A DNA stretch of 64,000 bases from NCBI GenBank assembly GCA_013152945.1, contig JAADFL010000212.1, positions 7,064 through 71,063 on the forward strand, written 5' to 3'. Both the position numbers and the translations under genes were made by a program. Numbering within the stretch: position 1 is the stretch's first letter; every line of letters begins with the position of its first letter. Shown here one piece after another: positions 41,008 through 64,000 of the stretch. This stretch comes from Deltaproteobacteria bacterium. Its GTDB lineage: Bacteria; Myxococcota_A; JAADFL01. The notes beneath the pieces are model-generated. The model was given only the letters and a program-made list of their open reading frames with translations, did not search any database and was not told where the DNA came from.

Positions 41008-41021
41008 CTCTTAAGTCCGGT

Positions 41022-42071
41022 TCATTCTGCTTCCCGCCTGAATTCCTTGATCTTTTTAGCATTGTCACCGATCTCCATCAGAGGCCTGCGACGCATTCTG
41101 TGGGGCAGGGCCATTTCGGCCGCGGTTTCTATGTCGCTCTTTTCCACCTTTTCGCGTTGAGAGAAAGCGGCCAGGGCCTTGGCCGCCTTCATCATGATAA
41201 TGTCTCCACGGTGGCCGTCCACGCCGACCTCGAGGCAAAAGTCAGCAATATTAAAAAGCTGGTCCCGTTCGATCACCACCTTTGGATAGAGTCTGCGGGC
41301 AATCTCGATCCTGTCCGATAGTTCCCTGGATTTTTTGGCCCATCGGGCTGCGAAACCAGTCGAATCCTCATCAAAGGCCACGCGCCTCTCCATGACCTCA
41401 ACCCTGTCATTTCGATCCATGATGCCCTCAACATGAACGGAAAGGCCGAACCGATCAAGAAGCTGGGGCCTAAGCTCTCCCTCCTCCGGGTTCATGGTGC
41501 CTACCAGTACGAAGCGTGCCGGGTGCGAGAATGAAACGCCTTCCCGTTCTATGGTATTGAATCCCATGGCAGCGGCATCGAGAAGGATATCTACGACATG
41601 GTCGTCAAGAAGATTCACCTCATCCACGTACAGGATTCCCCTATGGGCTGCGGCCAAAAGCCCCGGTTCGATTTGTTTTTCTCCTTTCTTTATTGCATGC
41701 TCCAGGTTTAATGTGCCTACTACACGGTCTTCAGTAGCGCCGACAGGCAGTTCCACCACCCGAATATGACGACGAAATATACCCTCTGTTTTGTCGCCGC
41801 CAAGCCGTTTTTCCCGGCAATCAAGCCGGAAGCATTCCCGGCAGAGGCCGACACCGTCATCCGGGGCCAACTGGAAGGGGCAGCCCTCGATCACTTCGAT
41901 CTCAGGCAGTATATCGGCAAGGGCCCGTACAGCAGTGGATTTCGCTGTCCCTTTTTCCCCTCGAATCAGTACTCCTGAAATGGTGGGATTAATCAGGTTG
42001 AGATATAAAGCCAGTTTCATTTTCTCTTGACCCACGATGGCTGCAAACGGATAAATGCTTTGATGGCTCAT
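41022..42071 (-). CDS. ChlI/BchI-like AAA+ chelatase ATPase subunit
   Basis: N-terminus [40 protein letters not shown], Walker [11 protein letters not shown], and a Cys-rich insertion (EGCPFQL...[10 protein letters not shown]). Confidence 0.85.
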
Positions 42072-42089
42072 GTTAATCTCCTTGAAAGA

Positions 42090-48021: not shown

Positions 48022-48848
48022 TTTTTCCTCCCGGACGCGCTTAAACGGTTCGGCAGCCGGCCTGGTTTATCCAGTTCTTGTTCCCCGGAACAACACAGGA
48101 CTTGAACGTTGAGATATCCGTTGTCCCGGGTGACAATGGATTCCACGCCGTACACGTCACGAATCTTCGCCGGGGTTACAATCTCGGCCGGCACACCTGC
48201 GCTGAAAATTTTTCCGTGGTGAAGTAAAATAATTCTGTCCGAAAACCTTGCGGCCAGATTCAGGTCATGCATAGCCATCATCACGCCTATCCCCTTGCCT
48301 TTCGCCAGTGCGGCTACAGTTTCCAGGAGTTCCATTTGATGGCGTAAATCAAGGCCGGAATTAGGCTCATCGAGCAAGAGATAACGTGTATCCTGGATCA
48401 TGGTTCTGGCAAGCAGAACCTTCTGCACCTGACCGGAGCTCAACTGATCCATATCCCTCATGGACAACTCGGACAGTTCCATCTCTTCGATTATTGTTTC
48501 CACCTTTTCCAGATCCTTCAGGGACGGTCTCCAGGCAAAATAAGGTCTTCGCCCGGAAAGGATTGTATCAAACACAGTGCCCGGAAAGCGGAAAAACATG
48601 GATTGCGGCATATAGGCCAATTGCTTTGCGATTTCTCTCCGCGGCATGCCAAGAGCGTCTCTGCCGTCCAAGTGTACAGTTCCAAGTGTAGGCTTGAGTA
48701 TACCGGAGATACATTTCAGCAATGTGGTCTTTCCGGCCCCATTGGGCCCGACTATACTTACAACTCCGCCCTTTTCCACGCTTGCCCTGACAGCGGCCAG
48801 CACCTTGTTGCCGTTATATTCGAAAAAGATTCCCCTTGCCTCAAGCAT
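48018..48848 (-). CDS. ABC importer ATP-binding protein (FecE/FepC/BtuD type)
   Basis: I trimmed it to the ATG at 48848 (TGATG overlap with the permease stop). Walker A GPNGAGKTT, signature LSSGQVQKV, Walker B LLLDEPNSGLD. Confidence 0.85.
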   Translation of the reverse strand: MLEARGIFFEYNGNKVLAAVRASVEKGGVVSIVGPNGAGKTTLLKCISGILKPTLGTVHLDGRDALGMPRREIAKQLAYMPQSMFFRFPGTVFDTILSGRRPYFAWRPSLKDLEKVETIIEEMELSELSMRDMDQLSSGQVQKVLLARTMIQDTRYLLLDEPNSGLDLRHQMELLETVAALAKGKGIGVMMAMHDLNLAARFSDRIILLHHGKIFSAGVPAEIVTPAKIRDVYGVESIVTRDNGYLNVQVLCCSGEQELDKPGRLPNRLSASGRKN

Positions 48849-49882
48849 CACCAATACTCCCTGGTTCGTTTCATTAAAAGGAAAACAAAGAACGGCACGC
48901 CGATAAAAGAAGTCACGATTCCGATGGGTATCACCAGGGGCGTCCAGAGGGTCCTGCCTGCCGTGTCCGCAGCCACAAGAATAATCCCTCCCACCAGCCC
49001 GGAACCTGCCAGCAGGAACCTGTGGTCGTTTCCAATGATCATGCGCGTAATGTGTGGGGCTACAAGCCCAATGAACCCGATGACCCCGGTGAAGCTGATA
49101 CAGCCGGCGGTTATCAGAGACGCCGCCGCCACACTCCATATCCTCAATCGATCAGGGTTGACCCCCAATGCCATGGCAGACTCGTCGCCGTAGGCCAGGA
49201 GATTAAAATCCCACGCACTACGTAGAAGCAGCGGAAATGGAGCAAGAATCATGACGGCAGCCAATCCGATTTCAGGCCATCCTACCCTGGAAAGACTGCC
49301 GAAAAACCAAAATACGATTTCATAAACCTGTTGCATGGTTCCTGTGTATTGGAAAAGGGAAGTAAGTGATGAAAACAGAAACATCAATGCTATACCCGAC
49401 AGGATCATGGTCTCGGATGAGGCCTTTTTCAACTTGGCTATTAGAATCATGACAGCCGCTGATAACAGGGAAAAAAGAAATGCACCGCCGGCCACTCCAT
49501 AGAGGAGACTTCCAGTGCCCAAAAAAATAATGGCAGTTACGGCTCCGAACCCTGCGGCCGATCCCACGCCAAGCGTAAAAGGTGAAGCGAGCGGGTTGCA
49601 AAGAACGACTTGAAATATCGTACCGGCCACCCCAAGCCCGAAGCCCACAAGTACGGCCATTAGAATACGGGGAAATCTCAGCATCCAGATGATACCAAAG
49701 CTGCGGCCCGTATCTTTGAATAAAGATGCAAGCACTGTCCCAAGCCCAATGCCGGACGCACCCACACATAGACCGATTGCCATGACAGTAAGAAGCACGA
49801 GGCACAGGGAGACCAGAAAAAAAATTTTTCTTTTGATGTCGGCTTCATAGCTTATAAAGACGGCTTCAACACCAGTACTCAT
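48848..49882 (-). CDS. FecCD/BtuC family ABC importer permease
   Basis: I trimmed it to the ATG at 49882 (ATGA overlap with the binding-protein stop). It is polytopic, with the typical C-terminus IPIGIVTSFIGVPFFVFLL. Confidence 0.85.
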   Translation of the reverse strand: MSTGVEAVFISYEADIKRKIFFLVSLCLVLLTVMAIGLCVGASGIGLGTVLASLFKDTGRSFGIIWMLRFPRILMAVLVGFGLGVAGTIFQVVLCNPLASPFTLGVGSAAGFGAVTAIIFLGTGSLLYGVAGGAFLFSLLSAAVMILIAKLKKASSETMILSGIALMFLFSSLTSLFQYTGTMQQVYEIVFWFFGSLSRVGWPEIGLAAVMILAPFPLLLRSAWDFNLLAYGDESAMALGVNPDRLRIWSVAAASLITAGCISFTGVIGFIGLVAPHITRMIIGNDHRFLLAGSGLVGGIILVAADTAGRTLWTPLVIPIGIVTSFIGVPFFVFLLMKRTREYW

Positions 49883-50943
49883 TTGCCGGTCTCCTGAAAA
49901 CCGCTTGATACATAAACACCGCGGTAGGATATACCCTGAAAAATCTCGATGTATTCCCTGTGCCATGCCTTTGGATCCAGGTCGGGAAAAAGTTTTGGAT
50001 AAAACCACCGTGCCAGGTAAGCCATGCCGATGATAGCACGTGGCCCGGTCCAAATGGCGCTGTCCATTACATGGACCCTTCCGTAAGCTACGGCCGCTAT
50101 GTGTTGCCAGGCCGGGCGCTTCATGATTTCCTCTTTTTGCCTGTTGAAAACCGCAGGGGTCTTGAGGGAGTACCCGCCACCCCAGGCTGCCGCTTTTACT
50201 ATTACGTCCGGGTTTTGGGAAACCACCCACTCAGGTGTTACCCGGGGGTACGGGATAGAAAATCCGGAGGCGATATTTCTCCCACCAGCGAGCGTGCACA
50301 TATCGTGGCCCCCGGATCCCGGCGCTACTGTGTGGTAGTCCGTATAGTTTTCGATATAGACTGAAGTCCTTTTTTTCACCAGCCCAAGCCTTTTTATTAG
50401 TTTGTCCAAGTGAAGTTTGTGCCAATCACAAAAACGCCTGGCCTCCTTTTCCCGCCCCAGAAGACGCCCCATGGTCATGACCTCGCGTTCCAGCGTGTCC
50501 TCCTTGTAGAAATCGAGGCGAAGGACCTTGACACCGAACGGGGCCATCTTTTTCTCCAGTTCCGGTCCGGGGTTGCGGCTGTATGCAACGACTATGTCGG
50601 GATGCAGGGCGACAATGGCCTCGATGTTTGCCTCACGCCAACTGCCTACCCTGGATTTTTGGGCCAGGTCGCCCCAGAAATCCCGGTTCCGCACGATCTC
50701 GGAAAAGACCCCGACAACCAGATCCTGGGCCTTCAGGGTTCGAAGAACCTCCAGAACATCCGAGTTCAGAGCCACTATCCGCTTGATGGGTAGAGAGACC
50801 TCGATTTTTCTACCCATGGAGTCCAAAACTGTTATGGAAGTACCAAGTGCGGTTTTTCCCTGCAACAGGATAGACATTGCAACCAGCATCCGACAAAAGT
50901 GTAAAAGTCTTTTCTGGGAAACAATAGTGTGCATGTCAATCAT
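49879..50943 (-). CDS. Periplasmic substrate-binding protein, BtuF/FepB (cluster A, class 8) type
   Basis: 354 aa with a signal peptide. The pattern RIVALNSDVLEVLRTLKA...DIVVAY is typical of siderophore/cobalamin binding proteins. Confidence 0.8.
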   Translation of the reverse strand: MIDMHTIVSQKRLLHFCRMLVAMSILLQGKTALGTSITVLDSMGRKIEVSLPIKRIVALNSDVLEVLRTLKAQDLVVGVFSEIVRNRDFWGDLAQKSRVGSWREANIEAIVALHPDIVVAYSRNPGPELEKKMAPFGVKVLRLDFYKEDTLEREVMTMGRLLGREKEARRFCDWHKLHLDKLIKRLGLVKKRTSVYIENYTDYHTVAPGSGGHDMCTLAGGRNIASGFSIPYPRVTPEWVVSQNPDVIVKAAAWGGGYSLKTPAVFNRQKEEIMKRPAWQHIAAVAYGRVHVMDSAIWTGPRAIIGMAYLARWFYPKLFPDLDPKAWHREYIEIFQGISYRGVYVSSGFQETGK

Positions 50944-50957
50944 GTTGCATGGGCTTC

Positions 50958-53231
50958 CTAGTACCTCGCCATGGCGTTTAGATACACTGCACGACCCGGC
51001 GAGCGATAGTACGAGTAGTAATGTTTGTCGAGAATATTATTTGCCAGCACGCCGACCCTGAAATGTTTGCCTATTTGGTAATGCAATGCGGCGTCCAGCA
51101 GGAAATGCTCGTCGAAACTTCCGTACACCCCGCTGTAAGTATCCCTGTTCTCGTCGTCGCGGTATGCCTTACCTATCCAACTTCCCCGCAGCCTAAAAGT
51201 CAGGCCTTCAAATTTCATTCCCAACCAGCCGAAATATATATTTTTGGGCATATAAGTGGTGATTTTTCCTTCTGTTTGCGGCCTTGCGGAATTCGATGTA
51301 ATTCGAGGATACTGATAGGTAAGCCCGGCTCCAAGTTCAAGCCATTTTGTAACTCGTTCGCTCAATTTCAGTTCCAGGCCTTCCACCCTTGCCTCTGCGG
51401 CATTTAATTTCTGTTTTGTCTTTTCGTCGATGCTGGCGGTGTAAATCATGTTGTCAACAAAGCTCATGAACCAAACGATATTTGACTTGAAGCCGATTTG
51501 TCTGATCCTGGATACCAGGCCTGCTTCCCAGCTCCATGTCCTCTCCGGTTTGAGTTTTGGGTTCGGCTTGTACGTGGTGCCGTAAAATGACCAGGTTTTG
51601 TAAAGTTCGTAAACGGTCGGCGGTCTGAAAGCTCTGCCTGCAGCAAAATTAAAACCGAGGAATTTCCATGGGTGGTAACTAACTCCGATCCTGGGATTGA
51701 TGGCTGTTTCATTGTTTGCAGGATAGGTATCCTTAAGCCCGGCCTGGACATCTTCGCTTTTGCCATCATAGTTCCTCCATATGTCCAACCTGGCTCCTGC
51801 CGAGACAATGATCTTGTCATGCAGGATGCTCCATTGATCGAGCAGGAACAGGCCCCCATTGAATGCCTTGCCCTGGGTGGATGTGAGCATACCGTTCCTG
51901 GTACCTGTATCCCGCCAGTTTCCAAGTGATTCAGACACACTCGCGGCTGCTGGGAAAAAAAGGGAAAGCCCTCCTGCCAGATTGTTTCCGGCAAACAGGG
52001 CGGCATTAAGCTGCAACTCGGAATATACATTGAGGGACTGCGTGAAGTTGTACTTGCCCGGACCTCCGAAATTATCAGCTCCGCTTTTCGGCATTGAGTA
52101 CCATCCCTCACGGTGCACGGCTCCCAACTTTGCAGACAGTGAAAGCCAGTTTGTGATTGTTGCTTTTGTTCGAATCCTTGCAATTCTGCATATGTTTTCT
52201 GAAAAGTTCTCCATCATGTTATAAGGACTAAGACTGAAATAATGCGTATCATCGGCCGTAATTTTTCCCGAGTATATGGGTTCTCCGGAATCTGTAAAAA
52301 GGTATGTATGGGCATCGGAATAACCATAGTTGAAACGGCCCTCCGTGTATCCTATATTCAGGTCCAGGAATTTCCATGGATGAAAGTACAGGTCTATGTT
52401 CGCCCCCCAGACATTGTCGTGATTATTTCCCTTATCTCCCACCAGATAGGCGGGATCCCCTTTGCTGGTAGTAGTCTTGTTCCATCCCGAGGCTGCAATT
52501 TCACCTGAACCTGTTTTCTCGGTTCTTACAACTTCTGCAGTCGGGTAACCACCGATGTACGTCCAATGGGCGGAAACCTTGAGGGAGAACCAATCCGTGA
52601 GCTTTTCACCATAGCTTCCGGCTAATCGCCCGGTAGAAAAGCTCCCGGCCGTTGTATCAAGTTCGATCTTCCTCTTTACAGGCTCGAACGAGCGAATATT
52701 TATCACCCCGCCCATGGCATATCCGCCGTAAGCCGGGGATGCGGGCCCGCTTAACAATTCAATCCTGTCCGCCATATCAGGTGAAATAGCCCACCATGGT
52801 ACGCCTCCGCTGTAGCCGCCGTTCATGGGTATGCCATTTATCATGACCAGATTCTGTTTATTCGAGCCAAAGCCCCTGATGAATACACCTGCCAGTGAAT
52901 CCATGGGCTTTGCGTGCCTTACCCATACTCCTGTCAAATTCGAGAAGGCCTCGTCCAGAGTCTGCACATTCCAGTCTTGCCAATCCCGTTTATTAAGGAC
53001 CTGAACCTCGAAAGGTATCTTTTCAGGGTCGCTGTTGATCCGTGTCGCCATAACCCTGGTTTCATAAATCAAAGCCTTAGGTTTTTTTTTCTTTTTATCA
53101 GTTCTCGCTTTTTCATTATTGGTTTTCCCTCGATTTTCCGATGTATCCTTCTCATGAGCCCACACCGGTTGCGACAGCGAAATCAACGCTATGGAACACA
53201 GCAGTAAGACCAACTTGATTGAACCAGGCAT
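50958..53231 (-). CDS. TonB-dependent outer-membrane receptor
   Basis: Signal peptide, plug-domain motif VFIRGFGSNKQNLVMINGIPMN, a long beta-barrel and a terminal aromatic residue (..AMARY). GGAGG precedes the ATG. Confidence 0.85.
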   Translation of the reverse strand: MPGSIKLVLLLCSIALISLSQPVWAHEKDTSENRGKTNNEKARTDKKKKKPKALIYETRVMATRINSDPEKIPFEVQVLNKRDWQDWNVQTLDEAFSNLTGVWVRHAKPMDSLAGVFIRGFGSNKQNLVMINGIPMNGGYSGGVPWWAISPDMADRIELLSGPASPAYGGYAMGGVINIRSFEPVKRKIELDTTAGSFSTGRLAGSYGEKLTDWFSLKVSAHWTYIGGYPTAEVVRTEKTGSGEIAASGWNKTTTSKGDPAYLVGDKGNNHDNVWGANIDLYFHPWKFLDLNIGYTEGRFNYGYSDAHTYLFTDSGEPIYSGKITADDTHYFSLSPYNMMENFSENICRIARIRTKATITNWLSLSAKLGAVHREGWYSMPKSGADNFGGPGKYNFTQSLNVYSELQLNAALFAGNNLAGGLSLFFPAAASVSESLGNWRDTGTRNGMLTSTQGKAFNGGLFLLDQWSILHDKIIVSAGARLDIWRNYDGKSEDVQAGLKDTYPANNETAINPRIGVSYHPWKFLGFNFAAGRAFRPPTVYELYKTWSFYGTTYKPNPKLKPERTWSWEAGLVSRIRQIGFKSNIVWFMSFVDNMIYTASIDEKTKQKLNAAEARVEGLELKLSERVTKWLELGAGLTYQYPRITSNSARPQTEGKITTYMPKNIYFGWLGMKFEGLTFRLRGSWIGKAYRDDENRDTYSGVYGSFDEHFLLDAALHYQIGKHFRVGVLANNILDKHYYSYYRSPGRAVYLNAMARY

Positions 53232-53495
53232 CGTTTACCTCCTTTGGACTGGACACTAGGTAGCACTAATATCCAAAAAGTAATCGCACAGTAGCATATT
53301 TTTAAATATCGTGGCAACAATATTTTTGGCCGGGCCAAGGCCGGCTTTTTTTTAAGGCCTTTGCCGAGAGGCATTTTGAACCCGCATGCTTTGGTAAAGC
53401 TTGCACGGGGATGAAGGCAGGGGCAATCTTTCAAACAAAAAATATTATGGGTAAGGACTCTAGAGAGCCGGGAACCTTATCCGTTCCAGGTAATC

Positions 53496-54146
53496 TTACT
53501 TTTTCTCATTCCCTTGTTCCATGCCTTGATCCAATAAATCCACCTGTGGATCCGGTGGCTCGGGAAGAAACGTCAAGCCCTTGACCAGGACATAGGCTGC
53601 CTGGAGATAGGAGGTGGGGCAAAGAGGAAAACATTCCTTGCAGCTCTCACACTCCCTGGCTGCAATCTCCGGTATGAAGCTGATTTCTTTCCTTATTCCC
53701 CTGTCTATGAATCCGATGGCGTTCTTTTTTTTCACTTCTGCACAATACCGCACGCACAGACCGCAATGAACGCAAAAAGACGCCTGTTGCTGAAACCTGT
53801 CCTTTTCAGCTCCGTATTCCCTTGCCATGTCCTGAATTATCGGTGCATCCGGAGCACGGGCGAGTAATAATTCCAGGAGAGTCTTGCGAATTTTATCTAT
53901 CTTCTTGGATCTGGTCCTTACCTTGAGGTTTTTTTCAGCCTGATACACGCATGATACCACGAGCTTGGTCCGGCCGTTCTTTTCCGCCTCGACAAGGCAG
54001 AGCCTGCATGCGCCGTATGGTTTGAGCTTCTCATGGTAACAAAGTGTAGGTATGGATATGTCGGCCCTTTTCGCCGCCTCCAAGAGAGTATCACCTTTCT
54101 TTGCAATGACTTCCTTTCCATCGATCTGCATGTGGATGTCACTCAT
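53496..54146 (-). CDS. bamI: [2Fe-2S]/[4Fe-4S] NuoG-N-terminal-like protein, BamI-like
   Basis: CYHEKLKPYGACRLCLVE ([2Fe-2S], NuoG type) and CVHCGLCVRYC ([4Fe-4S]). 216 aa, last gene of the eight-gene array. The symbol is assigned from synteny. Confidence 0.6.
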   Translation of the reverse strand: MSDIHMQIDGKEVIAKKGDTLLEAAKRADISIPTLCYHEKLKPYGACRLCLVEAEKNGRTKLVVSCVYQAEKNLKVRTRSKKIDKIRKTLLELLLARAPDAPIIQDMAREYGAEKDRFQQQASFCVHCGLCVRYCAEVKKKNAIGFIDRGIRKEISFIPEIAARECESCKECFPLCPTSYLQAAYVLVKGLTFLPEPPDPQVDLLDQGMEQGNEKK

Positions 54147-56067
54147 CGACCGTCACCTTTTTTATGCTTCTTTGTTCCTCTGGCAAAGGCGGTGGAACAG
54201 GCTCGCCTGAAATCTTTTTCACAGCGCTGAAACGGGCCGGACAGACCTCGGAGCATACCCCGCAGGCCGTGCACTTGTCCTGGTTGATGACGTGTATCAC
54301 TTGTTTGCCGCCCTCTATCGCCTGGGAAGGACAATTCCTAAGGCAGATCATGCATCCCTTGCACTTTTCCGGATCAATGTAATACGAGACCAGTGATCTG
54401 CATGACATCGCCGGGCACCGCTTCTCCTTGATATGCGCCTCGTATTCGTCCCTGAAGTAACGCAGGGTGCTCAAGAATGGGTTGCCTGCGCTTTTTCCAA
54501 GTGCGCAAAGTGAAGCTTCTTTCAGGGCCTCGGACAAGTCCTCCAGGGTTTCAATGTCGCCCTCTTTTCCCCTTCCCTCACATATGTCGGTCAGGATCCT
54601 TTCCATGTGTCTCAAACCTTCACGGCAGGGCAGACACTTGCCGCAGGATTCGTCGGCCAGAAAAGAAGTGAAGTACCTTGCCACATCAACCATGCAGGTA
54701 TCTTCGTCCATTACTATCATGCCGCCCGACCCCATCATGGATCCGGCTTTAGTGAGCTCGTCGAAACCTACCGGCAGGTCCAATTTTTCTTCAGGAAGGC
54801 ATCCGCCCGATGGTCCGCCTGTCTGCACGGCCTTGAACTTCTTACCCCCGGGTATGCCTCCGCCGATCTTGTAGATGATGTCCCGGAGCGTCATGCCCAT
54901 CGGAACCTCGACAAGACCGGTGTTGGTTATCTTGCCAACGAGGGAAAAGATCTTTGTGCCCTTGCTTCCTTGTGTGCCTATCTTCGTGAACCAATCCGCG
55001 CCATGGTTTATAATGAGCGGCACATTGGCCCATGTCTCTACATTGTTCAATACGCTCGGCTTGTCCCACAGGCCCCGGACATTCGAGCGGATGTACTTGG
55101 GCCTTGGCTCACCAACGCGGCCTTCCAGGGCTGCCATTAGGGCCGTGGATTCGCCGCATACGAAAGCGCCTGCGCCCCTATGAACCTCGACAGAGAAGTC
55201 GAAACCCGACCCAAGGATGTTCTTGCCCAGCAATCCGTATTCCTTTGCCTTTTCGATGGCGATGGTGATGTTCTCCACGGCAAGGGGATACTCCTGCCTT
55301 ACGTATACGTAACCCTGGTGGGCTCCGATTGCATATCCCCCAATAATGAGTCCTTCCAGTACAGAGTGTGGATTGCCTTCCAGCAAGGCACGGTCCATGA
55401 AGGCTCCGGGATCGCCTTCGTCAGCGTTCACGATTACATACTTGGTTTCGTCAGGTGCATTGCGGGAGCCTTCCCATTTCCTGCCTGTGGGGAAACCTGC
55501 GCCTCCCCTTCCGCGCAGGTTGGATTTCTTTACCTCTTCGATGACCTGTTCCGGGCCCATATCCGTAAGGACCCTTAAGAGAGCCGAATAACCGCCGATC
55601 GCCAGGTAGTCTTCGATTTTCTTGGGATCGATCTTTATATTGTGGTCTATCAAACGTCGTTCCTGATTTGCATAAAAAGGAATATCTGATTCATGAACCG
55701 ATCTTTCACCGGTCACAGTGTCGAGATATGCCAGGCGCTCAATCACCTCCTTGTCCCTGACGGTGCGTGACAAGATCTCGGGAACGTCCTCTGGTTTGAC
55801 CTGGAGATAACACGTTCCTTCCGGGTATATCACCACCACGGGGCCCCTTTCACAGAAACCCGGGCAACCAGTCCCCTTGGTTTCCACAGATGCACTAAGC
55901 CCCTGCTTTTCGATCTCTGTCTCAAAGGCGTTTATGACATCACGCGCTCCAAGGGCCAGGCAACCCGAACCTGCACATACGGAAATACGCGGCGTGGAAT
56001 TATCCCGGTCTTCCATGACTTGTTGTCTGAATTTCTCCAGCTCTTTCGATGAAGTAAAACGCGCCAT
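54139..56067 (-). CDS. bamH: NuoF-like FMN/NAD(H)-binding subunit with N-terminal thioredoxin-like and C-terminal 2x[4Fe-4S] domains, BamH-like
   Basis: GRGGAGFPTGRKW (FMN/NADH site), ESCGKCLPCREG (N3 cluster), and C-terminal CKGCMICLRNCP / CTACGVCSEVCP. Confidence 0.7.
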   Translation of the reverse strand: MARFTSSKELEKFRQQVMEDRDNSTPRISVCAGSGCLALGARDVINAFETEIEKQGLSASVETKGTGCPGFCERGPVVVIYPEGTCYLQVKPEDVPEILSRTVRDKEVIERLAYLDTVTGERSVHESDIPFYANQERRLIDHNIKIDPKKIEDYLAIGGYSALLRVLTDMGPEQVIEEVKKSNLRGRGGAGFPTGRKWEGSRNAPDETKYVIVNADEGDPGAFMDRALLEGNPHSVLEGLIIGGYAIGAHQGYVYVRQEYPLAVENITIAIEKAKEYGLLGKNILGSGFDFSVEVHRGAGAFVCGESTALMAALEGRVGEPRPKYIRSNVRGLWDKPSVLNNVETWANVPLIINHGADWFTKIGTQGSKGTKIFSLVGKITNTGLVEVPMGMTLRDIIYKIGGGIPGGKKFKAVQTGGPSGGCLPEEKLDLPVGFDELTKAGSMMGSGGMIVMDEDTCMVDVARYFTSFLADESCGKCLPCREGLRHMERILTDICEGRGKEGDIETLEDLSEALKEASLCALGKSAGNPFLSTLRYFRDEYEAHIKEKRCPAMSCRSLVSYYIDPEKCKGCMICLRNCPSQAIEGGKQVIHVINQDKCTACGVCSEVCPARFSAVKKISGEPVPPPLPEEQRSIKKVTVDE

Positions 56068-56076
56068 GATCTCCCT

Positions 56077-56529
56077 CTACTCGTAGCTTTTCAGCAAGTT
56101 TGGAACATCGGCGGACGACAACTTGCCATGGGCCTTTCCATCGATTTCAACCACTGGGCCGAGTGCACAGCATCCAAGGCAATTTACTGTCTCGAGGCTG
56201 AACTTGAGATCAGAGTCGGTCTCTCCGGCCTTTATTCCGGTTTCTTCCTGTATCGTTTCAAGGATACGCGGCGCACCACGCACATGGCAGGCCGTTCCCA
56301 TGCACACGTTTATTTCATGGCGGCCCTTCGGAACCAGGCTGAAGGCCTTGTAAAAAGTAGAAATATTACGGATGCGCGTCATGGGAACATTCAGCTTTTC
56401 AGCAACCCTCTCCAGGGCCTTGCCCGGAAGCCAATGGTTCTTTGATTGAATTTCCAGCATAACCTGTATCAGGGCGCTTGCCTCGCCATGGTGTCTGTCA
56501 ATGATTTGATTGATTTCTTCGATATCCAT
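56077..56529 (-). CDS. bamG: NuoE-like [2Fe-2S] thioredoxin-fold subunit, BamG-like
   Basis: 150 aa with the cluster ligands CMGTACHVRG ... CLGCCALGP. Confidence 0.7.
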   Translation of the reverse strand: MDIEEINQIIDRHHGEASALIQVMLEIQSKNHWLPGKALERVAEKLNVPMTRIRNISTFYKAFSLVPKGRHEINVCMGTACHVRGAPRILETIQEETGIKAGETDSDLKFSLETVNCLGCCALGPVVEIDGKAHGKLSSADVPNLLKSYE

Positions 56530-56584
56530 TTCCAGTTTACCGGTCCCATCCTTTCTTCAAACACACATCGCCGGGCCGGACAAT

Positions 56585-57346
56585 TCAAGCAAGGGCATAG
56601 TTTCCAAGCTCTTGATCATACCTGACAAGGCCCAGCCTCGATGAGTCGTTCATGTACTTTGCCACAGAAGACGGGCTTATTCCCAACTTCTCGGATATTT
56701 CCTTTTGTGAAAGGCGCACGTTCTTCAAGAGCAGCATGATTTGGCTCATAACAATCTTTACTGCAATCGAATCTTGAAAGAACCTTTCGAATTCATCACT
56801 GTCGAAGAATTCGTAGTACGCCTTTTCCGTTCTTTCCAGGGTGTTCAACCTGTGTGTCAACACCAGCTTAACGTAGGGCGCTATACTTTTTACCGCAGTG
56901 AGCCTGAACCGCAGTGTATCATCATCCAGACCTTCTGTTTTTCCGAGAGGTCCTGTTTCCTCAATCTCTCTGCCGAACTCGTTCATGAACTTGGAAAATT
57001 CGATTCCCTCGCCGGCAGATACCCATTCAAGTCTCAATCTTTTGGGATTGAGACCGATGTAATCTAAAATTTTCCTAGCAACATGAAATAGACCATATGC
57101 ATTGAAATTTCCGCTGCTCACATAATGGCAGTCGCCAAGGTGACAGCCGCCGATGAACATCCCGTCATGTCCATCCGAAAAGGCCCGCAGGATGTGTAAC
57201 AGGTCCACCCTGCCGGAGCACATGACTCTCATGAGCCTTATGTACGGCGGATATTGAAACCTGGAGACTCCGCACAGATCCGCCCCTGCATAGCAACACC
57301 AATTACATACGATCCCGATTATCTTGGGCTGAAATTCACTACTCAT
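56585..57346 (-). CDS. bamF: MvhD/FlpD-like iron-sulfur subunit with C-terminal extension, BamF-like
   Basis: The MvhD-type block is PKIIGIVCNWCCYAGADLCG...VMCSGRVD...GCHLGDCHY. I prefer the ATG at 57346 (GAGG 5 nt upstream, 8-nt overlap with the bamE-like stop) over the ATG at 57373. Confidence 0.65.
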   Translation of the reverse strand: MSSEFQPKIIGIVCNWCCYAGADLCGVSRFQYPPYIRLMRVMCSGRVDLLHILRAFSDGHDGMFIGGCHLGDCHYVSSGNFNAYGLFHVARKILDYIGLNPKRLRLEWVSAGEGIEFSKFMNEFGREIEETGPLGKTEGLDDDTLRFRLTAVKSIAPYVKLVLTHRLNTLERTEKAYYEFFDSDEFERFFQDSIAVKIVMSQIMLLLKNVRLSQKEISEKLGISPSSVAKYMNDSSRLGLVRYDQELGNYALA

Positions 57347-60300
57347 GGGCGCCTCTTTCCTCGCTTGCCGCATCGATCTGGGCGAAAATTTCCTCGTCGG
57401 TATAATGCTTCAAGGAAATAGCCGAAGTCGGACACACCGAGTTACATACGCCGCAGCCTTTGCACAAGATGGAATTGACCGTGGCTTTCCTGCCTGACTC
57501 TGTCTCGTGAAAACTTATTGCACCGTATGCACAAACGGAAATACATGCTCCGCATGACACGCAGGCATCTTCGTTTACATCGCACACGGCACCTGTGGCG
57601 GTCACGGTATCATGTGATAACAGGGTGACCGCCCTGCCGGCTGCGCCGTATGCCTGGCTTATTGCTTCGGAAATGTGTTTTGGATAGTGAGCGGTTCCAC
57701 ACAGGAATATGCCTTCAGCCGCGAAATCGACAGGTCTTAATTTTACGTGAGCCTCCTGGAAGAAACCGTCCGGGTTCAAGGTCAACTTGAATTGGCGTGA
57801 AATCTTAAGCGTGTCTGCTGTGGGTACTACACCGGTCGACAAAATCACATGATCTGCATCCAGCGCAAGGCGCTGCCCAAGTATGGGATCCGGCACTGTA
57901 ACTCTAAGAACAGGCTTGCCTTCCTCGTCCTCGGCCGGCTCCACTTCCGGCTTGCCACTTGGTTCAAAGCGAACGAATCTAACACCCTGTTCACTGGCCT
58001 TGCGATAATAATCCTCCTTGAATCCGTAAGTACGCATATCCCGGAACAGGATGTATACATCCATTTCGGGCCGTTTCTTCTTCAGGTCCAGTGCATTCTT
58101 TATGGCTTGGCTGCAACACACGCGGGAGCAATAGTTTCTATCCTCCTGCCTGGAGCCCACACATTGTATCATTACCACGGCCCTGGATCCCAGGAGCTCA
58201 TCATCTTCCCGCTCTATTCGCTCCTCTACTTCGAGTTGTGTCAATACCCGGCTGTCTTGGCCGTACAGGTATTCGACCGGCTTGTATTCCTCTGCGCCTG
58301 TGGCAATTATGACAGCGCCGTGGTGGATGGTCTTGGTCCTGCCTTCGGACTCCACGGTAGTCACGAAGTTGCCCACAAAGCCGGTGGCGTCTCTTATTAT
58401 CGCCCCGTGTGATACCTGGACCAGGGGATGCCGGTATACCTTGTCAATCAACTCGTCAAGGTATTCCTGTACATCCATTCCTTCCAAAGTGGTCTTGATC
58501 CTCCGGGCCATGCCGCCCAGCTCCGGGTTCTTTTCCACCAGGTGGACCTCGTAACCCTGGTCGGCCAGGCTCAATGCAGCGACCATCCCGGCAATGCCTC
58601 CTCCTATCACCAGGGTCTTCTTGTTCACCGTTAAATCGAATTCCTCCAGGGGCTCCAGGAGCCTTGCCCTGGCAACCGACATCCTCACGAGGTCCTTGGC
58701 CTTGTTTGTGGCTTCCTCCTTTTGCTTGGAATGAACCCAGGAGCAGTGCTCTCGGATGTTGGCCATGTCGTAGAAGTACTGGTTGATGCCTCCCTCGCGT
58801 AGGGTGTCGCGAAAGAGCGGTTCATGGGTCCTTGGCGTACATGCGGCGACCACCACGCGATTCAAGCCCTTGTCCCGTATCGTGTTTGCTATCTCTTGAG
58901 CCGCGTCGGTGGAACATATGAACAGGCCCTCTTCGGCGTGAACCACGTTGGGCAATGACTTTGCATAATCCACCACGGAAGGCACGTTCACTATGCGGCC
59001 GATATTTGCTCCACAGTGACACACAAACACGCCTACCTTTGCTTCTTCGCCAGATGCATCCCGCTCCGGAGGATATATACGCTCCTTGGAAAGCTTGCCC
59101 CTCCTGTTCTTGAGGAGCGCGCCTATTTGGGCGTTTGTGCCGCTGGCGCTTACGACCGACTCGGGGATGTCCATCGGTCCCTGGAATGCACCGCTTACGA
59201 ATATACCGGGACGGGTCGTCTCCATCGGGTTTTGCGGATTGGTCTTGCAGAATCCATGAGCATTGAGTTCGATACCGAACCTGTTTGCAAGGTCACCGGC
59301 CTTGTTTGGCGGAGCCAGGCCCACTCCCAGTACCACGAGATCAAATTCTTCTTCCTTTACACCTTCGTTGTCTGTTGCATACCGGATGGTTACGTTCTTT
59401 GTATCCGGGTCCTCTACTCCGACAGATACATAACTCCTGATGAAATGCACTCCCGGCAGGTCCGCGGCCCTCTTGTAGAACCTTTCGAAATCCTTGCCAT
59501 AGGACCGGATATCGTTGTGGAATATGAATGCCTCCGCATCGGGGTCGTGATCCTTGGCCAGTATCACCTGTTTTTGTATATACGAGCAGCAGACCGCCGA
59601 GCAAAAGTTGTTTCCTCCCGCAAGCACTTGCCTGGAACCCACACAGTGAATCCAAGCAATCTTGTGCGGATGCCTCTTGTCAGAGGGGCGCAGGATCTCG
59701 CCTTCATGCGGCCCGGTCGAGCAGAGGAGACGCTCGAAATCCAGGCTTGTCACAACGTTTTCATAGGCCCCGTAACCATAATCGCCCCTTGGACCGGGAT
59801 CGAATGCTCCGTATCCCGGAGACATGACGATTGCGCCTACCTTAATGACCACCTTTTCAGGTTTTTGATTTAAGTCTACTGCATTGTTCGGACAGACACT
59901 GGCGCAAATGGAACATTTCTTATCTTTGATGAACAAGCAGTTGTCATCGATGTATGGCACGAGCGGAACTGCTTGAGAAAAATATATATGAATGGCCTTG
60001 TTGCTCGACAACTTCTGGTTGAACGGATCCGGAACCTGTACCGGGCAATACTCTGTGCACGTAGTACAGCCGGTGCATAGTTCTTCTTTAATGTACCTTG
60101 GTTTCTTGATAAGGGTAATTTCGAAGTCCCCTTTTTGCCCCTCCACGCTCTCGACCTCGGTATAGGTCAGGATTTCGATATTGGGATGCCTGTCACACTC
60201 AATGAACTTGGGGGATTCGATGCACATGGAGCAGTCATTGGTTGGGAAAGTCTTATCCAGTTGGGCCATGTGCCCACCCACGGTCGGCGACTTTTCGACC

Positions 60301-60407
60301 AGGTAGACCTTGTAACCAGAGTTTGCAAGATCCAGGGCCGCTTGAATGCCGCTGATCCCTGCGCCTACAACCAGGACATCTCCGAAGTTGCTTTTATCTC
60401 CCATCAT
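57339..60407 (-). CDS. bamE: Large HdrA-like flavo-iron-sulfur protein with two dinucleotide-binding sites, BamE-like
   Basis: 1022 aa with two GxGxxG sites (VVGAGISGIQAALDLA and VIGGGIAGMVAALSLA) and several CxxCxxCxxxCP ferredoxin motifs. The frame is uninterrupted, with no internal TGA. Confidence 0.7.
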   Translation of the reverse strand: MMGDKSNFGDVLVVGAGISGIQAALDLANSGYKVYLVEKSPTVGGHMAQLDKTFPTNDCSMCIESPKFIECDRHPNIEILTYTEVESVEGQKGDFEITLIKKPRYIKEELCTGCTTCTEYCPVQVPDPFNQKLSSNKAIHIYFSQAVPLVPYIDDNCLFIKDKKCSICASVCPNNAVDLNQKPEKVVIKVGAIVMSPGYGAFDPGPRGDYGYGAYENVVTSLDFERLLCSTGPHEGEILRPSDKRHPHKIAWIHCVGSRQVLAGGNNFCSAVCCSYIQKQVILAKDHDPDAEAFIFHNDIRSYGKDFERFYKRAADLPGVHFIRSYVSVGVEDPDTKNVTIRYATDNEGVKEEEFDLVVLGVGLAPPNKAGDLANRFGIELNAHGFCKTNPQNPMETTRPGIFVSGAFQGPMDIPESVVSASGTNAQIGALLKNRRGKLSKERIYPPERDASGEEAKVGVFVCHCGANIGRIVNVPSVVDYAKSLPNVVHAEEGLFICSTDAAQEIANTIRDKGLNRVVVAACTPRTHEPLFRDTLREGGINQYFYDMANIREHCSWVHSKQKEEATNKAKDLVRMSVARARLLEPLEEFDLTVNKKTLVIGGGIAGMVAALSLADQGYEVHLVEKNPELGGMARRIKTTLEGMDVQEYLDELIDKVYRHPLVQVSHGAIIRDATGFVGNFVTTVESEGRTKTIHHGAVIIATGAEEYKPVEYLYGQDSRVLTQLEVEERIEREDDELLGSRAVVMIQCVGSRQEDRNYCSRVCCSQAIKNALDLKKKRPEMDVYILFRDMRTYGFKEDYYRKASEQGVRFVRFEPSGKPEVEPAEDEEGKPVLRVTVPDPILGQRLALDADHVILSTGVVPTADTLKISRQFKLTLNPDGFFQEAHVKLRPVDFAAEGIFLCGTAHYPKHISEAISQAYGAAGRAVTLLSHDTVTATGAVCDVNEDACVSCGACISVCAYGAISFHETESGRKATVNSILCKGCGVCNSVCPTSAISLKHYTDEEIFAQIDAASEERGAHE

Positions 60408-61585
60408 GGTGTCTCTTCGCTTTCCTTCAACGATGCCCAGACGATTTCAGTAATATCCTTGATTTCCAATGTCTCTTCGTCTCCCAGGGCGAGCCTGCTC
60501 TCCTCGAAATTGCTGATGCAATAGGGGCAAGCTGTAACCAACATTTCTGCGCCTGCTTCCTTGGCCTGGGCCAATCGAAGGTCTGCGAACCTCTGGCCCT
60601 TGGGCGTATCCATCCATATCCTGCCGCCGCCTCCACCGCAGCACAGGCTGTTTTGTCTGTTGTTCCGCATTTCCACGAGTTCCAAACCGGGTATATTTTT
60701 TAGTACATCCCTTGGCTGGTCGAAGATCCCGTTGTGCCGCCCAAGGTAGCATGGATCATGATAGGTTATTTTCTTTTTGACTTCCCCGGTAAGCTCGATT
60801 CTTCCCTGTTCGATCAACTCCAACAGGAATTGCGAGATGTGAACAACGTCGAAGTGCACCATGAATTCGGAATATTCATTCTTGAAGGTATGATAACAGT
60901 GCGGGGAAGACACAAGGATTCTTTTAACTCCGTTATCGATGAAAGTCTTGATATTGTCCTTGGCCAGGGCTTTGAATACATCCTCGTTTCCTGTTTTTCG
61001 AATACTCTCGCCGCAACAGCTTTCCTTGTTTCCCAGAATTCCGAATTTCACCCCCGCCTTTTTCAGTATGCCGACAGTGGCGGCCGCGGCCTTTCTCATT
61101 CTTGGGTCGTAGCTGTAGTAGCAGCCTACAAAATATAGAATCTCCATCCCCTCGGCAAAGGGCTTGATCGAAAGATCTTTTGTCCAGGCATCTCTCTTGT
61201 TCCTGTCCTCTCCGAGTGGATTGCCGTCTGTTGTGAGGCTCCCCCTGACTGTCCTGATTGCCCGGACAGAGCCCGGGAACACACCATAGTTCGATGCAAT
61301 CCTGCGTATGGCAACTCCAACTTCGATTTGTTCGACACCTCTTGGACACTGGGACGGACACAGACCGCACGTGGTGCAGCGCCAGAGGTCTTCGATCTCT
61401 ATTTCAGGCAAACCAAGCGTGGCCTGCCTGACTATTTTCCTGATACTGAAATCGGTAACCAGATTCCAGGGGCAAACAGTGTCACACTTGCCGCATTGGT
61501 AGCAGTACTTGAAGGCCTCGCCTCCACTTTTCTTGATCTCATCAATAATTTCAGTAATCGGGGAGACTGTCTCCACTGCGCTCAT
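60404..61585 (-). CDS. bamD: HdrD-like protein (2x[4Fe-4S] + two CCG domains), BamD-like
   Basis: CYQCGKCDTVCP and CTTCGLCPSQCP, plus CCG-type motifs (VGCYYSYDP, HDPCYLGRH, CCGGGGG). It has an ATGA overlap with the bamE-like start. Confidence 0.7.
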   Translation of the reverse strand: MSAVETVSPITEIIDEIKKSGGEAFKYCYQCGKCDTVCPWNLVTDFSIRKIVRQATLGLPEIEIEDLWRCTTCGLCPSQCPRGVEQIEVGVAIRRIASNYGVFPGSVRAIRTVRGSLTTDGNPLGEDRNKRDAWTKDLSIKPFAEGMEILYFVGCYYSYDPRMRKAAAATVGILKKAGVKFGILGNKESCCGESIRKTGNEDVFKALAKDNIKTFIDNGVKRILVSSPHCYHTFKNEYSEFMVHFDVVHISQFLLELIEQGRIELTGEVKKKITYHDPCYLGRHNGIFDQPRDVLKNIPGLELVEMRNNRQNSLCCGGGGGRIWMDTPKGQRFADLRLAQAKEAGAEMLVTACPYCISNFEESRLALGDEETLEIKDITEIVWASLKESEETP

Positions 61586-61604
61586 CCTTCCTAAAAAACA
61601 GGCT

Positions 61605-62147
61605 TTAAACCTTCTTGGACATTTTGTTTACAGCGTCGATCACCTTTTGCAGGCCATGCTTATCCACCAGTGCCTCGATCCCTTCATCCAGCTCGTCAAT
61701 AACCGGCTCTTCTTCCACTTCCTCTTCCCTTTCCTCATAGGTCAGGGCATCCGCCAGGCACCATTGCACGCACAAGGGCTCTTTGATCGAGGGATCGGAT
61801 TCGCACATGTCGCACTTTAAGGGAAGCCCGGAGTCAGGTTCCTTGAAAATATCCCTTGAAGGACAAGAGGCCCGGCAAAATGCGCATTCATCGTATTCCT
61901 TGCCGTTGATCGTGTACTTGTCCCTGCCAGCACACTCCGCCGCCGTGTACTCGCCGGCGAAAACCGGAATGTATATATCTGACAACGGATCGCGAATCAC
62001 GCGAACACGGGACCTCGCCGGGTTGCTGCTGCTGTATTGCGGTATGGCATGAAAGGCCGAACAAATAGCCTCACACGCACGACAGCCGTTGCACTTGTCT
62101 ACATCGATATTGATTGTCTTTATTACCTTCTTTTTCGTGCCCATCAC
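61605..62147 (-). CDS. bamC: Poly-ferredoxin-like [4Fe-4S] subunit, BamC-like
   Basis: 180 aa with CNGCRACEAICS, CAFCRASCP and CDMCE... motifs. It overlaps the stop of the AOR-family gene by 4 nt. Confidence 0.65.
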   Translation of the reverse strand: MMGTKKKVIKTINIDVDKCNGCRACEAICSAFHAIPQYSSSNPARSRVRVIRDPLSDIYIPVFAGEYTAAECAGRDKYTINGKEYDECAFCRASCPSRDIFKEPDSGLPLKCDMCESDPSIKEPLCVQWCLADALTYEEREEEVEEEPVIDELDEGIEALVDKHGLQKVIDAVNKMSKKV

Positions 62148-64000
62148 GATTCTATTCCTTTACTCGGGGCTTCCCGGGGCTGGCTATCTCCCTCCTCGCT
62201 CAAGATTCCCCGCCTGACAAAATCTTCAGCCACATAGTCCAGGCCCAATTCATGCAATGTCTCGATAGTGGGGACACCATCAAGGTTCCATCCCTTGAAC
62301 TTGTAGTATTCATCCATGAGGTTCTTCTCGAACTCTGGAAACCTCTTCTTCCAATGGTCTTCCGGCGGCTTCTCATCCTTTCTCCTCATGCCCCTGCGTA
62401 TGTTGTTGGCCCTGACCAGGTTCCGGTTTCTCCTGGTAAGGCGAACCAGTCCGGGCTCATCCAGGTCCAGTCCCACGCCGGAAGAGATGAGTTCAGGCAA
62501 ATTGTGTATGTGAAAAGGCGGCTTGTACGGGAAAGATGAAAGTCCTGCGCACATACCGGTGCAGTCGTCGATGTAATGTTGCTGTTCCTGCCAATTCACG
62601 ATTTCACAAACCGCATCCACTGGCGGATAGTTTGGGATCGAGTGCTCTCCGCGAAGTTCCCAGTCCACGAACCATTGCTTGAATCTCTCATCCGGAACAT
62701 GCACCCAATCCTTGACAAACTCTTCGCGTTCTTCCCTTGTCGGAAACGGCATTTGAGGAAAGTTGCCTTCAATTTGCGTGATATTTACCTTTTCGCCGGT
62801 AATGTACATTATAAAGTAGATAGGGTTCAGCATCCCGAGCTTGAGCGGCAGTTGCTCGGTTTTCTTTATCGTGTTGTGAGCATACTCTTCCGCGCCCTTG
62901 CCGATTTCTCTGGACGCCCAATACGTGCCGTTTGCAAGGACATCACCAATTCCCTCACGCCGGACGATCTTGTCGAGCAGGTAATAGAACCTTCCCTCGT
63001 TGTCGGATGGAAATTCCGGCATGTCCTTGTCCGTAAGGATGCCTGCCTCGTATAGTTCAACGGCAAAGGCCATGGTCTGAGGTGCAGAGAATGCATCGAC
63101 CCCGTGTTCAGTTGCTTTTTGTGCGATTTTCAGGCCGAATTCCAGGTCTGAAAATGCTCCCATGGTGTACGTGAGCTTGGAGTAGCATTTCATCATGTAC
63201 GAGCACATCCTTGTGTCGACGGAAATGGCTGCGCCGCACTTCATGGGGCAATTGTAACAACTCAGCAACCTGGTCCGCCTGCTCTCCAGGGTTTCTTTCC
63301 ACTGCTTCGCGACATCCTCTGTCCAAAACCCTTTTCTGCGAACACGCGCATTGCCCCAGGCAAAGTTCTCTGTATGCCACTGCTCGTCATGAATGGCCAT
63401 CTCCTGCGGCGAGCCGATACCGCTCAAAATCGGAGGAACTCCCTTTATGGGATGTTCGTTTCGTACCTTGATGTATTCCAGGGATTGATTGCATAGCTTC
63501 ATGAAATCCGCCGGCTTGGCGACATTGATGTCCTTGCTCGTTCCTCGGACTGCCACGGCTTTTAGGTTTTTATCTCCCATGACAGCACCCAGCCCGAGAC
63601 GGCTCGCACTTGACCTGCCCTGCTCTATGGATGCAAAGTACACCCTGTTTTCACCAGCCAGGCCGATCGAGGCTACTGCGGCATTCGGTTCGTTCAACTC
63701 CTGGCGAATGATTTCCGCTGTCTCAAGCGACCCCAGTCCTTTTAGATGTGATGCATCGCGAATCTCAACCTTGTCGTTTTTGATCCACAAATAGACGAGC
63801 TTTGGGGACTTGCCGTTGATTATCACCTTGTCGTAACCGGCAAACTTCAATTCCGGGGCAAAGAAACCTCCCATCATTGCGTACCCGAACAGCCGAGTCT
63901 GAGGAGAGATTGCAGAAACAATAGTACGGTTGCAGCCCGGAGCAGGCGTGCCAACAAGAACTCCGGCACCGAATATTAGCAAGTTTTCCGGAGAAAACGG
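62144..64000 (-). CDS. bamB: Aldehyde:ferredoxin oxidoreductase family tungstopterin enzyme, BamB-like (5' end outside the window)
   Basis: The frame stays open to the window edge (...PFSPENLLIFGAGVLVGTPAPG, the AOR-family N-domain motif). The track's M at 63982 is an internal TTG. Position and partners match bamB. Confidence 0.65.
   Translation of the reverse strand, partial: PFSPENLLIFGAGVLVGTPAPGCNRTIVSAISPQTRLFGYAMMGGFFAPELKFAGYDKVIINGKSPKLVYLWIKNDKVEIRDASHLKGLGSLETAEIIRQELNEPNAAVASIGLAGENRVYFASIEQGRSSASRLGLGAVMGDKNLKAVAVRGTSKDINVAKPADFMKLCNQSLEYIKVRNEHPIKGVPPILSGIGSPQEMAIHDEQWHTENFAWGNARVRRKGFWTEDVAKQWKETLESRRTRLLSCYNCPMKCGAAISVDTRMCSYMMKCYSKLTYTMGAFSDLEFGLKIAQKATEHGVDAFSAPQTMAFAVELYEAGILTDKDMPEFPSDNEGRFYYLLDKIVRREGIGDVLANGTYWASREIGKGAEEYAHNTIKKTEQLPLKLGMLNPIYFIMYITGEKVNITQIEGNFPQMPFPTREEREEFVKDWVHVPDERFKQWFVDWELRGEHSIPNYPPVDAVCEIVNWQEQQHYIDDCTGMCAGLSSFPYKPPFHIHNLPELISSGVGLDLDEPGLVRLTRRNRNLVRANNIRRGMRRKDEKPPEDHWKKRFPEFEKNLMDEYYKFKGWNLDGVPTIETLHELGLDYVAEDFVRRGILSEEGDSQPREAPSKGIES

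Follow-up and report, generated by a model that had tools for sequence, protein, structure and literature searches.

The 64,000-nucleotide (nt) stretch of DNA analysed here, referred to as the window (G000:C212:7064-71063; positions below are in window numbering), carries on its minus strand an operon, bamBCDEFGHI, that very probably encodes a complete tungsten-dependent, ATP-independent, electron-bifurcating class II benzoyl-CoA reductase. Enzymes of this class are the key enzymes of aromatic degradation in strict anaerobes, and their mechanism has only recently been resolved structurally. Judged from its codons, the operon is a selenium-free form of the enzyme, with cysteine at both of the sites that can hold selenocysteine (Sec) in related operons, and comparison of the BamB and BamF trees points to bamF as the part of the operon with a separate history.

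Identity of the operon

Eight uninterrupted, co-directional minus-strand open reading frames (ORFs) extend from position 53496 to the window end in the order bamBCDEFGHI, as read from the ORF list and from Pfam and NCBIfam models, and no in-frame stop codon was present in any of the eight bam genes of the window. The original prediction had described a bamBCDEFGHI-like array with the gene order and subunit sizes of BamB-I of Geobacter metallireducens; its domains, sizes and order proved to be as stated, and all eight subunits were present in canonical order. The genes, the two codon positions of interest and the adjoining regulator are as follows (aa, amino acids; FMN, flavin mononucleotide).

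bamB: 62144-64000 in the window (full gene to 64156, 670 aa), minus strand; Pfam AFOR_N and AFOR_C, PDB 4Z3W_A
bamC: 61605-62147, minus strand; 180-aa polyferredoxin, partner of BamB, with Fer4 matches and PDB 4Z3W_E
bamD: 60404-61585, minus strand; 393 aa, HdrD-like, with 2x[4Fe-4S] (Fer4_8) and two CCG domains
bamE: 57339-60407, minus strand; 1022-aa fused double HdrA, bifurcating flavoprotein by homology
BamE codons 59-62 (C-S-M-C): 60222-60233, minus strand; redox-active pair, position 62 being a Sec site in some lineages
bamF: 56585-57346, minus strand; 253-aa long MvhD adaptor with a winged-helix tail, cysteine type
BamF codons 17-18 (TGT TGC, Cys-Cys): 57293-57298, minus strand; codon 17 is the selenocysteine position, read directly
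bamG: 56077-56529, minus strand; 150 aa, NuoE/HydC-like [2Fe-2S] protein (2Fe-2S_thioredx, E 1e-49; HoxE and NuoE models)
bamH: 54139-56067, minus strand; 642 aa, NuoF/HydB-like FMN and NADH subunit (nuoF_fam, 485 bits)
bamI: 53496-54146, minus strand; 216 aa, NuoG-N/HydA-N-like Fe-S protein (Fer2_4, Fer4_7, Fer4_Nqo3)
tetR: 64156-64791 (L013:2220-2855), outside the window, abutting bamB upstream with a 1-nt overlap with the bamB start; TetR-family regulator

The protein of the aldehyde:ferredoxin oxidoreductase (AOR) family was confirmed to be BamB and not an aldehyde oxidoreductase, as it matched the BamB of G. metallireducens (4Z3W_A) with 999.5 bits (E 5e-300, residues 53-651), compared with 203 bits (E 6e-59) for the best true aldehyde:ferredoxin oxidoreductase (1AOR). 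In the alignment to 4Z3W_A, His260, Cys299/302/306 and Cys322 were all retained within the motifs W-H-T-E-N, S-C-Y-N-C-P-M-K-C-G and Y-M-M-K-C. In 4Z3W numbering, Cys322 is the tungsten ligand and Cys299/302/306 form the [4Fe-4S] motif. The window ends within bamB, whose full ORF (L013:208-2220) extends a further 156 nt, and the gene product is the sole BamB in the genome, the remaining AOR-family genes being 26-30% identical to it.

Further agreement was seen in the partner subunits. BamC matched 4Z3W_E (E 9.5e-80, residues 4-179), BamE matched the methanogen HdrA structures 8RVU and 5ODC in three stretches (E ~1e-200), and the N-terminal domain of BamF matched methanogen MvhD structures (E 2e-45). 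Within BamE, Pfam placed two flavin adenine dinucleotide (FAD)/Rossmann sites (residues ~10-48 and ~597-640) together with Fer4 domains, the HdrA2 model of NCBIfam scored 979 bits, and Lys279 and Gln767 are each offset by one from the published Lys280 and Gln768. BamH was composed of Complex1_51K, SLBB and NADH_4Fe-4S domains, with an N-terminal 2Fe-2S_thioredx domain (25-101) and C-terminal 2x[4Fe-4S] Fer4 domains (562-619), while BamI was also matched by the NuoG, HoxU and FeFe-hydrogenase N-terminal models of NCBIfam. The cysteines of BamD were assigned to two cluster motifs (C28/31/34/38 and C70/73/76/80) and to two CCG domains (C155-CC190/191-C230 and C279-CC315/316-C353xxC356), of which the second is complete and the first is without its fifth cysteine (C230-Y-H-T233). 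This gap fits the published observation that most BamDs have a disrupted distal cluster (bioRxiv 10.64898/2026.04.10.717634).

The annotated start of bamF had to be corrected. FlpD (18-141) and HTH_24 (214-243) were located by Pfam in a 262-aa bamF ORF, but the start was reassigned to the ATG at 57346, which gives 253 and not 262 aa and overlaps the bamE stop by 8 nt (ATGAGTAG). With this correction the junctions (in nt, overlaps being negative) were B/C -4, C/D +19, D/E -4, E/F -8, F/G +55, G/H +9 and H/I -8, and the statement that most junctions overlap by 4-8 nt is thus true for four of the seven. A scan for BamB in species-representative genomes returned 48 loci at 52-81% identity, and the order BCDEF(GHI) was repeated wherever the flank sufficed. 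Dozens of related loci have BCDEFGHI in this order, each subunit being 63-81% identical to that of the window. Among 40 sampled genomes, all related to the host only at phylum level, bamB was found in one (G039).

Pathway genes and host genome

The proposal that the host degrades aromatic compounds anaerobically was supported by the identity of BamB and by predicted pathway genes encoded elsewhere in the genome. Had (BamQ; 502 bits against TIGR03201, cut-off 339) and Oah/BamA (591 bits against TIGR03200, cut-off 464) are adjacent on contig C29 with a thiolase gene beside them, and a benzoate-CoA ligase family protein is encoded on C65 (663 bits against TIGR02262, cut-off 375). Of the genes that the original prediction proposed to look for, had, oah/bamA and benzoate-CoA ligase were therefore recovered above curated cut-offs, whereas dch was represented only by a candidate below its cut-off. 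The best match to Dch (TIGR03189) reached 143 bits against a cut-off of 292.5, and generic enoyl-CoA hydratase models scored equally, so that Dch/BamR is at present a generic crotonase candidate. Genes for the alpha and beta subunits of electron-transferring flavoprotein (ETF; PF00766, PF01012) were likewise unmatched in the 94%-complete assembly, the same searches being positive in 10 of 14 control genomes. Both observations weigh against the assignment of the operon to a functioning benzoyl-CoA pathway. Given that the assembly is 94% complete and that the genome holds 11 acyl-CoA dehydrogenase genes, the missing ETF is likely an assembly gap, which is also the simplest reading; the lineage may otherwise use a high-potential acceptor other than ETF for BamD and for these dehydrogenases.

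Two other explanations of the operon were considered in the light of these results. The enzyme could be a BamB-type reductase for another aryl-CoA (hydroxy-, methyl- or halo-substituted benzoyl-CoA), that is, a paralogue with altered specificity, since Geobacter-like organisms have several bamB paralogues whose specificity is unassigned (G. daltonii bamB1/3/4), the benzoate-CoA ligase model is of the 'subfamily' type and the ligase gene adjoins that of a second acyl-CoA ligase. This is, however, judged improbable, as the genome has a single BamB, with 999 bits to the crystallised BamB that reduces benzoyl-CoA, as the full BamDEFGHI set follows in canonical order, and as the Had and Oah of the unsubstituted pathway lie above cut-off. 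That the operon encodes a generic redox complex of the Hdr/Nuo type, or is a relic in decay, and plays no part in aromatic catabolism would agree with the unrelated neighbours (the TonB receptor, ABC and CobN cluster downstream and the sigma/anti-sigma genes upstream) and with the failure to identify Dch and ETF. It is regarded as highly improbable in view of eight intact, full-length genes with retained cofactor motifs and translationally coupled junctions, the conserved, dedicated TetR gene, and the presence in the genome of Had, Oah and the ligase. A complete class II benzoyl-CoA reductase is therefore the reading retained here.

The host itself is recorded as a Deltaproteobacteria bacterium. 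Nine MYXO-CTERM matches above cut-off were found in the genome, compared with none in the controls, and kinases with best matches to EspA/EspC are encoded, which together suggests a deep-branching, Myxococcota-like, uncultured host. On these grounds a Bacteroidota host, which the labels on the BamF relatives had suggested, was rejected.

Several further loci in the genome were noted in passing. The neighbourhood of the benzoate-CoA ligase gene (G000:C65:2834-17475, L015) also contains genes for a second acyl-CoA ligase, an ADP-forming acyl-CoA synthetase, a BcrA/D-family activase ATPase and a three-subunit molybdoenzyme of the xanthine dehydrogenase family resembling 4-hydroxybenzoyl-CoA reductase; assignment of the latter as 4-hydroxybenzoyl-CoA reductase was rejected, its subunits scoring 371, 108 and 124 bits against curated cut-offs of 995, 258 and 405. 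A pair of genes on C29 (675 and 184 aa), considered as a second bamBC, proved to encode ThrS and IF-3. A second NuoE/NuoF/NuoG-N-like trio (G000:C212:44-4645, L016) is located just upstream of the window start beside an acyl-CoA dehydrogenase gene, its products being 42%, 46% and 32% identical to BamG, BamH and BamI, and more BamGHI-like sets occur on C187, C121 and C110. One haem-copper oxidase family gene is present in the genome (G000:C111:7467-8699, a 782-aa ORF), of a size that would suit a quinol NO reductase or an oxygen reductase alike.

Cysteine at both selenocysteine sites

In G. metallireducens, BamF carries Sec19 beside its [2Fe-2S] cluster, the Geobacter BamE has a redox-active Cys59-Cys62 pair that forms a disulfide, and the winged helix of BamF docks on BamI (bioRxiv 10.64898/2026.04.10.717634), while the BamE of Desulfococcus multivorans is annotated as a selenoprotein (PMC5109826). 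The statement in the original prediction that some Geobacter Bam subunits are selenoproteins was thus right in substance. When in-frame stops were mapped in all subunits over 133 related loci, recurrent TGA codons were found at two columns only, namely BamF 17 (27 loci) and BamE 62 (9 loci, including Syntrophus buswellii). At these columns the window reads C-N-W-C17-C18-Y in BamF, where Sec-type loci have C-x-W-TGA, and C59-S-M-C62 in BamE. The expected Cys-only variant, with uninterrupted HdrA-like and MvhD-like ORFs, was accordingly found, with cysteine at BamF 17 and BamE 62.

The cysteine form is not a one-off, nor is it rare; it constitutes a large natural class. The motif CNWCCY was present in all 120 best database relatives of BamF (58-67% identity, ~255 aa), many of them labelled Bacteroidota, and many metagenomic contigs, amounting to dozens of bam operons, combine it with a complete bamBCDEFGHI. 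The second cysteine (C18) was found in 76 of 76 Cys-type loci and in none of 27 Sec-type loci, where its place is taken by A, G or V. At residue 25 of BamF, 47 of the 76 have Cys and the other 29 Ala. Classified by both sites, the mapped loci comprised 17 that were E-Cys/F-Sec (the Geobacter type), 9 that were E-Sec/F-Sec and 39 that were E-Cys/F-Cys, proportions that are biased because the metagenome loci (L074-L153) were gathered with a Cys-type query, and the combination E-Sec/F-Cys was not encountered among the 133. In the genome loci of the BamB scan with a readable BamF start, 25 were Sec-type and a single one was a genuine Cys-type bam locus (L056, Dehalococcoidia). That Cys17 corresponds to Sec19 of Geobacter is deduced from where TGA falls in related loci and from residue numbering.

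A loss of Sec decoding was rejected as the origin of the cysteine form, since the genome encodes tRNA-Sec (C32), SelA, SelB and a SelD whose own gene has a TGA codon for Sec within the motif C-A-G-U-A-A-K (G000:C94:11143-12075, L068). A search for published descriptions of the Cys-type BamF class, of the CC pair or of Myxococcota bam genes found nothing specific, subscription journals being poorly covered by it.

An additional in-frame TGA was seen in two near-identical metagenome contigs with Cys-type operons (L132 and L133), at the column of Cys551 in the window BamH. A third selenocysteine site may lie here, or the two contigs may have a sequencing or strain artefact in common.

Origin of the cysteine-type bamF

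The relationship of the window to other loci was found to depend on the subunit compared. The window BamF was 40-53% identical to the BamFs of the genome loci from the BamB scan, whereas the other subunits were about 59-81% identical. In the BamF tree, a single branch (support 93; 82 with the 45-row set) separated the Cys from the Sec types, the window fell within a Cys-type clade with a support of 99*, and the Cys/Sec state required 1-2 changes. After removal of 16 motif columns, 2 changes were needed, a single split was not rejected (p-AU 0.42) and the window stayed in the 99* Cys-type clade. In the BamB tree, by contrast, the window belonged to a 100* clade of 19 rows, of which 16 are Sec-type and only L086/L087 Cys-type, and the Cys label required at least 5-6 changes. 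The same conflict was evident from approximately unbiased (AU) tests. With BamB data, the grouping of all Cys-type operons was rejected (log-likelihood difference 438, p 4e-55), as was the set defined by the BamF clade (p 9e-5); with BamF data, the set defined by the BamB clade was rejected (p 2e-51, or 1.5e-7 without the motif columns). These p-values are indicative, because the groups were chosen after inspection of the trees, which came from 'quick' searches, although the likelihood gaps are nonetheless large.

Sliding identity was used to locate the conflict within the operon. Over residues 1-180, the window BamF showed identities of 0.81/0.64/0.66/0.52 to Cys-type operons and of 0.51/0.52/0.48/0.38 to Sec-type operons of the window's own BamB clade, whereas BamB, C, D and H were nearer to the Sec-type clade and the winged-helix tail of BamF (181-253) was equidistant. 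The upstream TetR gene also tracks the BamB clade. The operon thus combines a backbone from a mostly Sec-type clade with a BamF whose first ~180 residues are of the Cys type. Exchange of bamF between operons is the most economical reading of so strong a conflict between the two trees, and it is considered fairly probable that recombination with another bam operon lineage, and not a TGA-to-TGY change in place, gave the operon its Cys-type bamF segment (codons 1 to about 180).

The competing explanation is that a TGA-to-TGT change took place in an ancestral Sec-type bamF, followed by rapid compensatory evolution or convergence without any gene exchange. Point conversions from Sec to Cys are common in selenoprotein families, which favours such an event. 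The window BamF also has a long end branch (0.45-0.51), and its winged-helix part (residues 181-253) is no closer to Cys-type than to Sec-type proteins. The post hoc choice of AU groups and the quick tree searches noted above, together with this long branch, weigh against exchange. The excess of identity to the Cys type, however, amounts to 12-30 points across residues 1-180 and so reaches beyond the vicinity of the site; the 99* Cys-type clade persists without the motif columns, on which data the grouping by BamB clade was still rejected; and the Cys/Sec split takes few changes on the BamF tree compared with several on the BamB tree. Conversion in place is therefore considered unlikely, though it keeps a real share of the probability, and acquisition of the segment by recombination is preferred.

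An extension of the exchange reading, put forward tentatively and at slightly less than even confidence, is that the 3' end of bamE and the first ~180 codons of bamF form a portable segment which exists in two ancient forms, C-x-W-U-A and C-N-W-C-C, has been repeatedly swapped across phyla and sets the selenium dependence of the enzyme. If this were true, the invariant second cysteine would be a functional stand-in for selenium, and a host that makes selenoproteins would have taken up the Cys form for selenium economy or for redox tuning.

Proposed mechanism

By homology with the G. metallireducens complex, electrons from NADH and reduced ferredoxin would enter at BamGHI (BamGH) and be passed by BamI to the [2Fe-2S] cluster of BamF, and from there to the FAD of BamE, where bifurcation would take place. 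The low-potential electron would then travel through the clusters of BamE and BamC to the tungsten-pterin of BamB, which would reduce benzoyl-CoA to cyclohexa-1,5-diene-1-carbonyl-CoA, while the high-potential electron would exit through BamD. The product would then be taken on to ring cleavage by Had and Oah, whose genes lie on another contig (C29). Within BamF, Cys17 would take the role of Sec19, and Cys18 would offer an adjacent thiol for a disulfide instead of a selenenylsulfide; in this manner the adjacent Cys18 may supply a thiol partner that offsets the missing selenol.

Operon boundaries and flanking genes

In 15 loci of the window's BamB clade, a TetR gene of 65-80% identity likewise stands immediately before bamB. 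Because of this conservation in front of bamB, tetR-bamBCDEFGHI is probably one transcription unit, and the locus is probably a nine-gene operon. A gene for an extracytoplasmic function (ECF) sigma factor and anti-sigma genes lie upstream of tetR, and a 264-nt gap after bamI is followed by a TonB-dependent receptor gene and a CobN/ChlID chelatase/ATP-binding cassette (ABC) transporter cluster. As the flanking genes are unrelated, the bam genes form an isolated unit. A hairpin at 53324-53347 was considered as the bamI terminator and rejected, its T-run being on the plus strand only and thus unconvincing for a minus-strand operon. The metal-uptake and chelatase cluster (window 39428-53231, minus strand) was observed to encode the TonB-dependent receptor, a periplasmic binding protein, ABC ATPases and a permease, a 1306-aa CobN-type chelatase and two ChlI/ChlD-like AAA+ subunits.

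Significance

In the Geobacter enzyme, BamF Sec19 and the BamE Cys59-Cys62 pair are singled out by the cryo-EM preprint as the unresolved link between one- and two-electron chemistry (bioRxiv 10.64898/2026.04.10.717634). The widespread natural replacement of Sec-Ala by Cys-Cys offers a ready-made experiment on this question and implies that enzymes of this class can do without selenium. It also has a practical consequence, in that Sec-type bamF genes are truncated by gene callers whereas Cys-type genes are not, and surveys are biased as a result. The operon further extends the capacity for benzoyl-CoA reduction to a deep Myxococcota-like lineage. The enzyme system itself is well known, and the interest of the locus is for that reason moderate; what is added is the mapping of both Sec sites, the finding that the CC pair is invariant, the coexistence of Sec machinery with a Cys enzyme and the evidence for exchange of bamF.

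Comparison with known systems

The closest characterised system is the Bam[(BC)2DEFGHI]2 complex of G. metallireducens (4Z3W-4Z40, and the cryo-EM preprint), with which the window shares the same eight subunits in the same gene order. In both, BamE is a fused double HdrA with C59-x-x-C62, BamF is a long MvhD with a winged-helix tail, BamH has a ferredoxin-type C-terminal domain and one CCG domain of BamD has a missing cysteine. The window differs in having Cys17-Cys18 in BamF in place of Sec19-Ala, in the TetR gene at the head of the operon and in pathway genes that are not clustered with it. Its host is Myxococcota-like, and no ETF genes were found in its assembly, ETF being the acceptor proposed for Geobacter.

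Double-selenoprotein operons, such as those of D. multivorans (PMC5109826) and S. buswellii (L051), have a homologous BamB-F core and use the same redox positions, BamE 62 and BamF 17, but carry TGA at both of them where the window has Cys, and many, L051 among them, are without bamGHI. Such short-form operons lacking bamGHI were observed at L019, L020, L031, L040, L043, L045, L051, L057, L059, L136 and L140-L153; they encode a ~190-aa BamF followed by a stretch matching only the C-terminal ferredoxin domain of BamH (residues ~557-637), and were found with Sec-type and Cys-type BamF alike.

Cys-type operons from metagenomes and metagenome-assembled genomes (for example L075, L078, L085 and L086/L087) have the identical CNWCCY motif, BamFs 58-67% identical to that of the window and the full BCDEFGHI order. 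Their BamB/C/D backbones, however, mostly belong to other BamB clades, whereas the backbone and TetR gene of the window belong to a mostly Sec-type clade. L086/L087 are the Cys-type operons nearest to the window in BamB (81%), but their BamG is divergent (49% identical) and their BamH aligns only to residue 548, without the C-terminal ferredoxin domain that the window has kept. The MvhD of methanogens (5ODC, 8RVU) likewise has Cys at the C-N-W-C position; it differs in its length of ~140 aa, in being without the extra domain and the winged helix, in the Thr or Ser that follows the cysteine, and in serving heterodisulfide reduction and not ring reduction.

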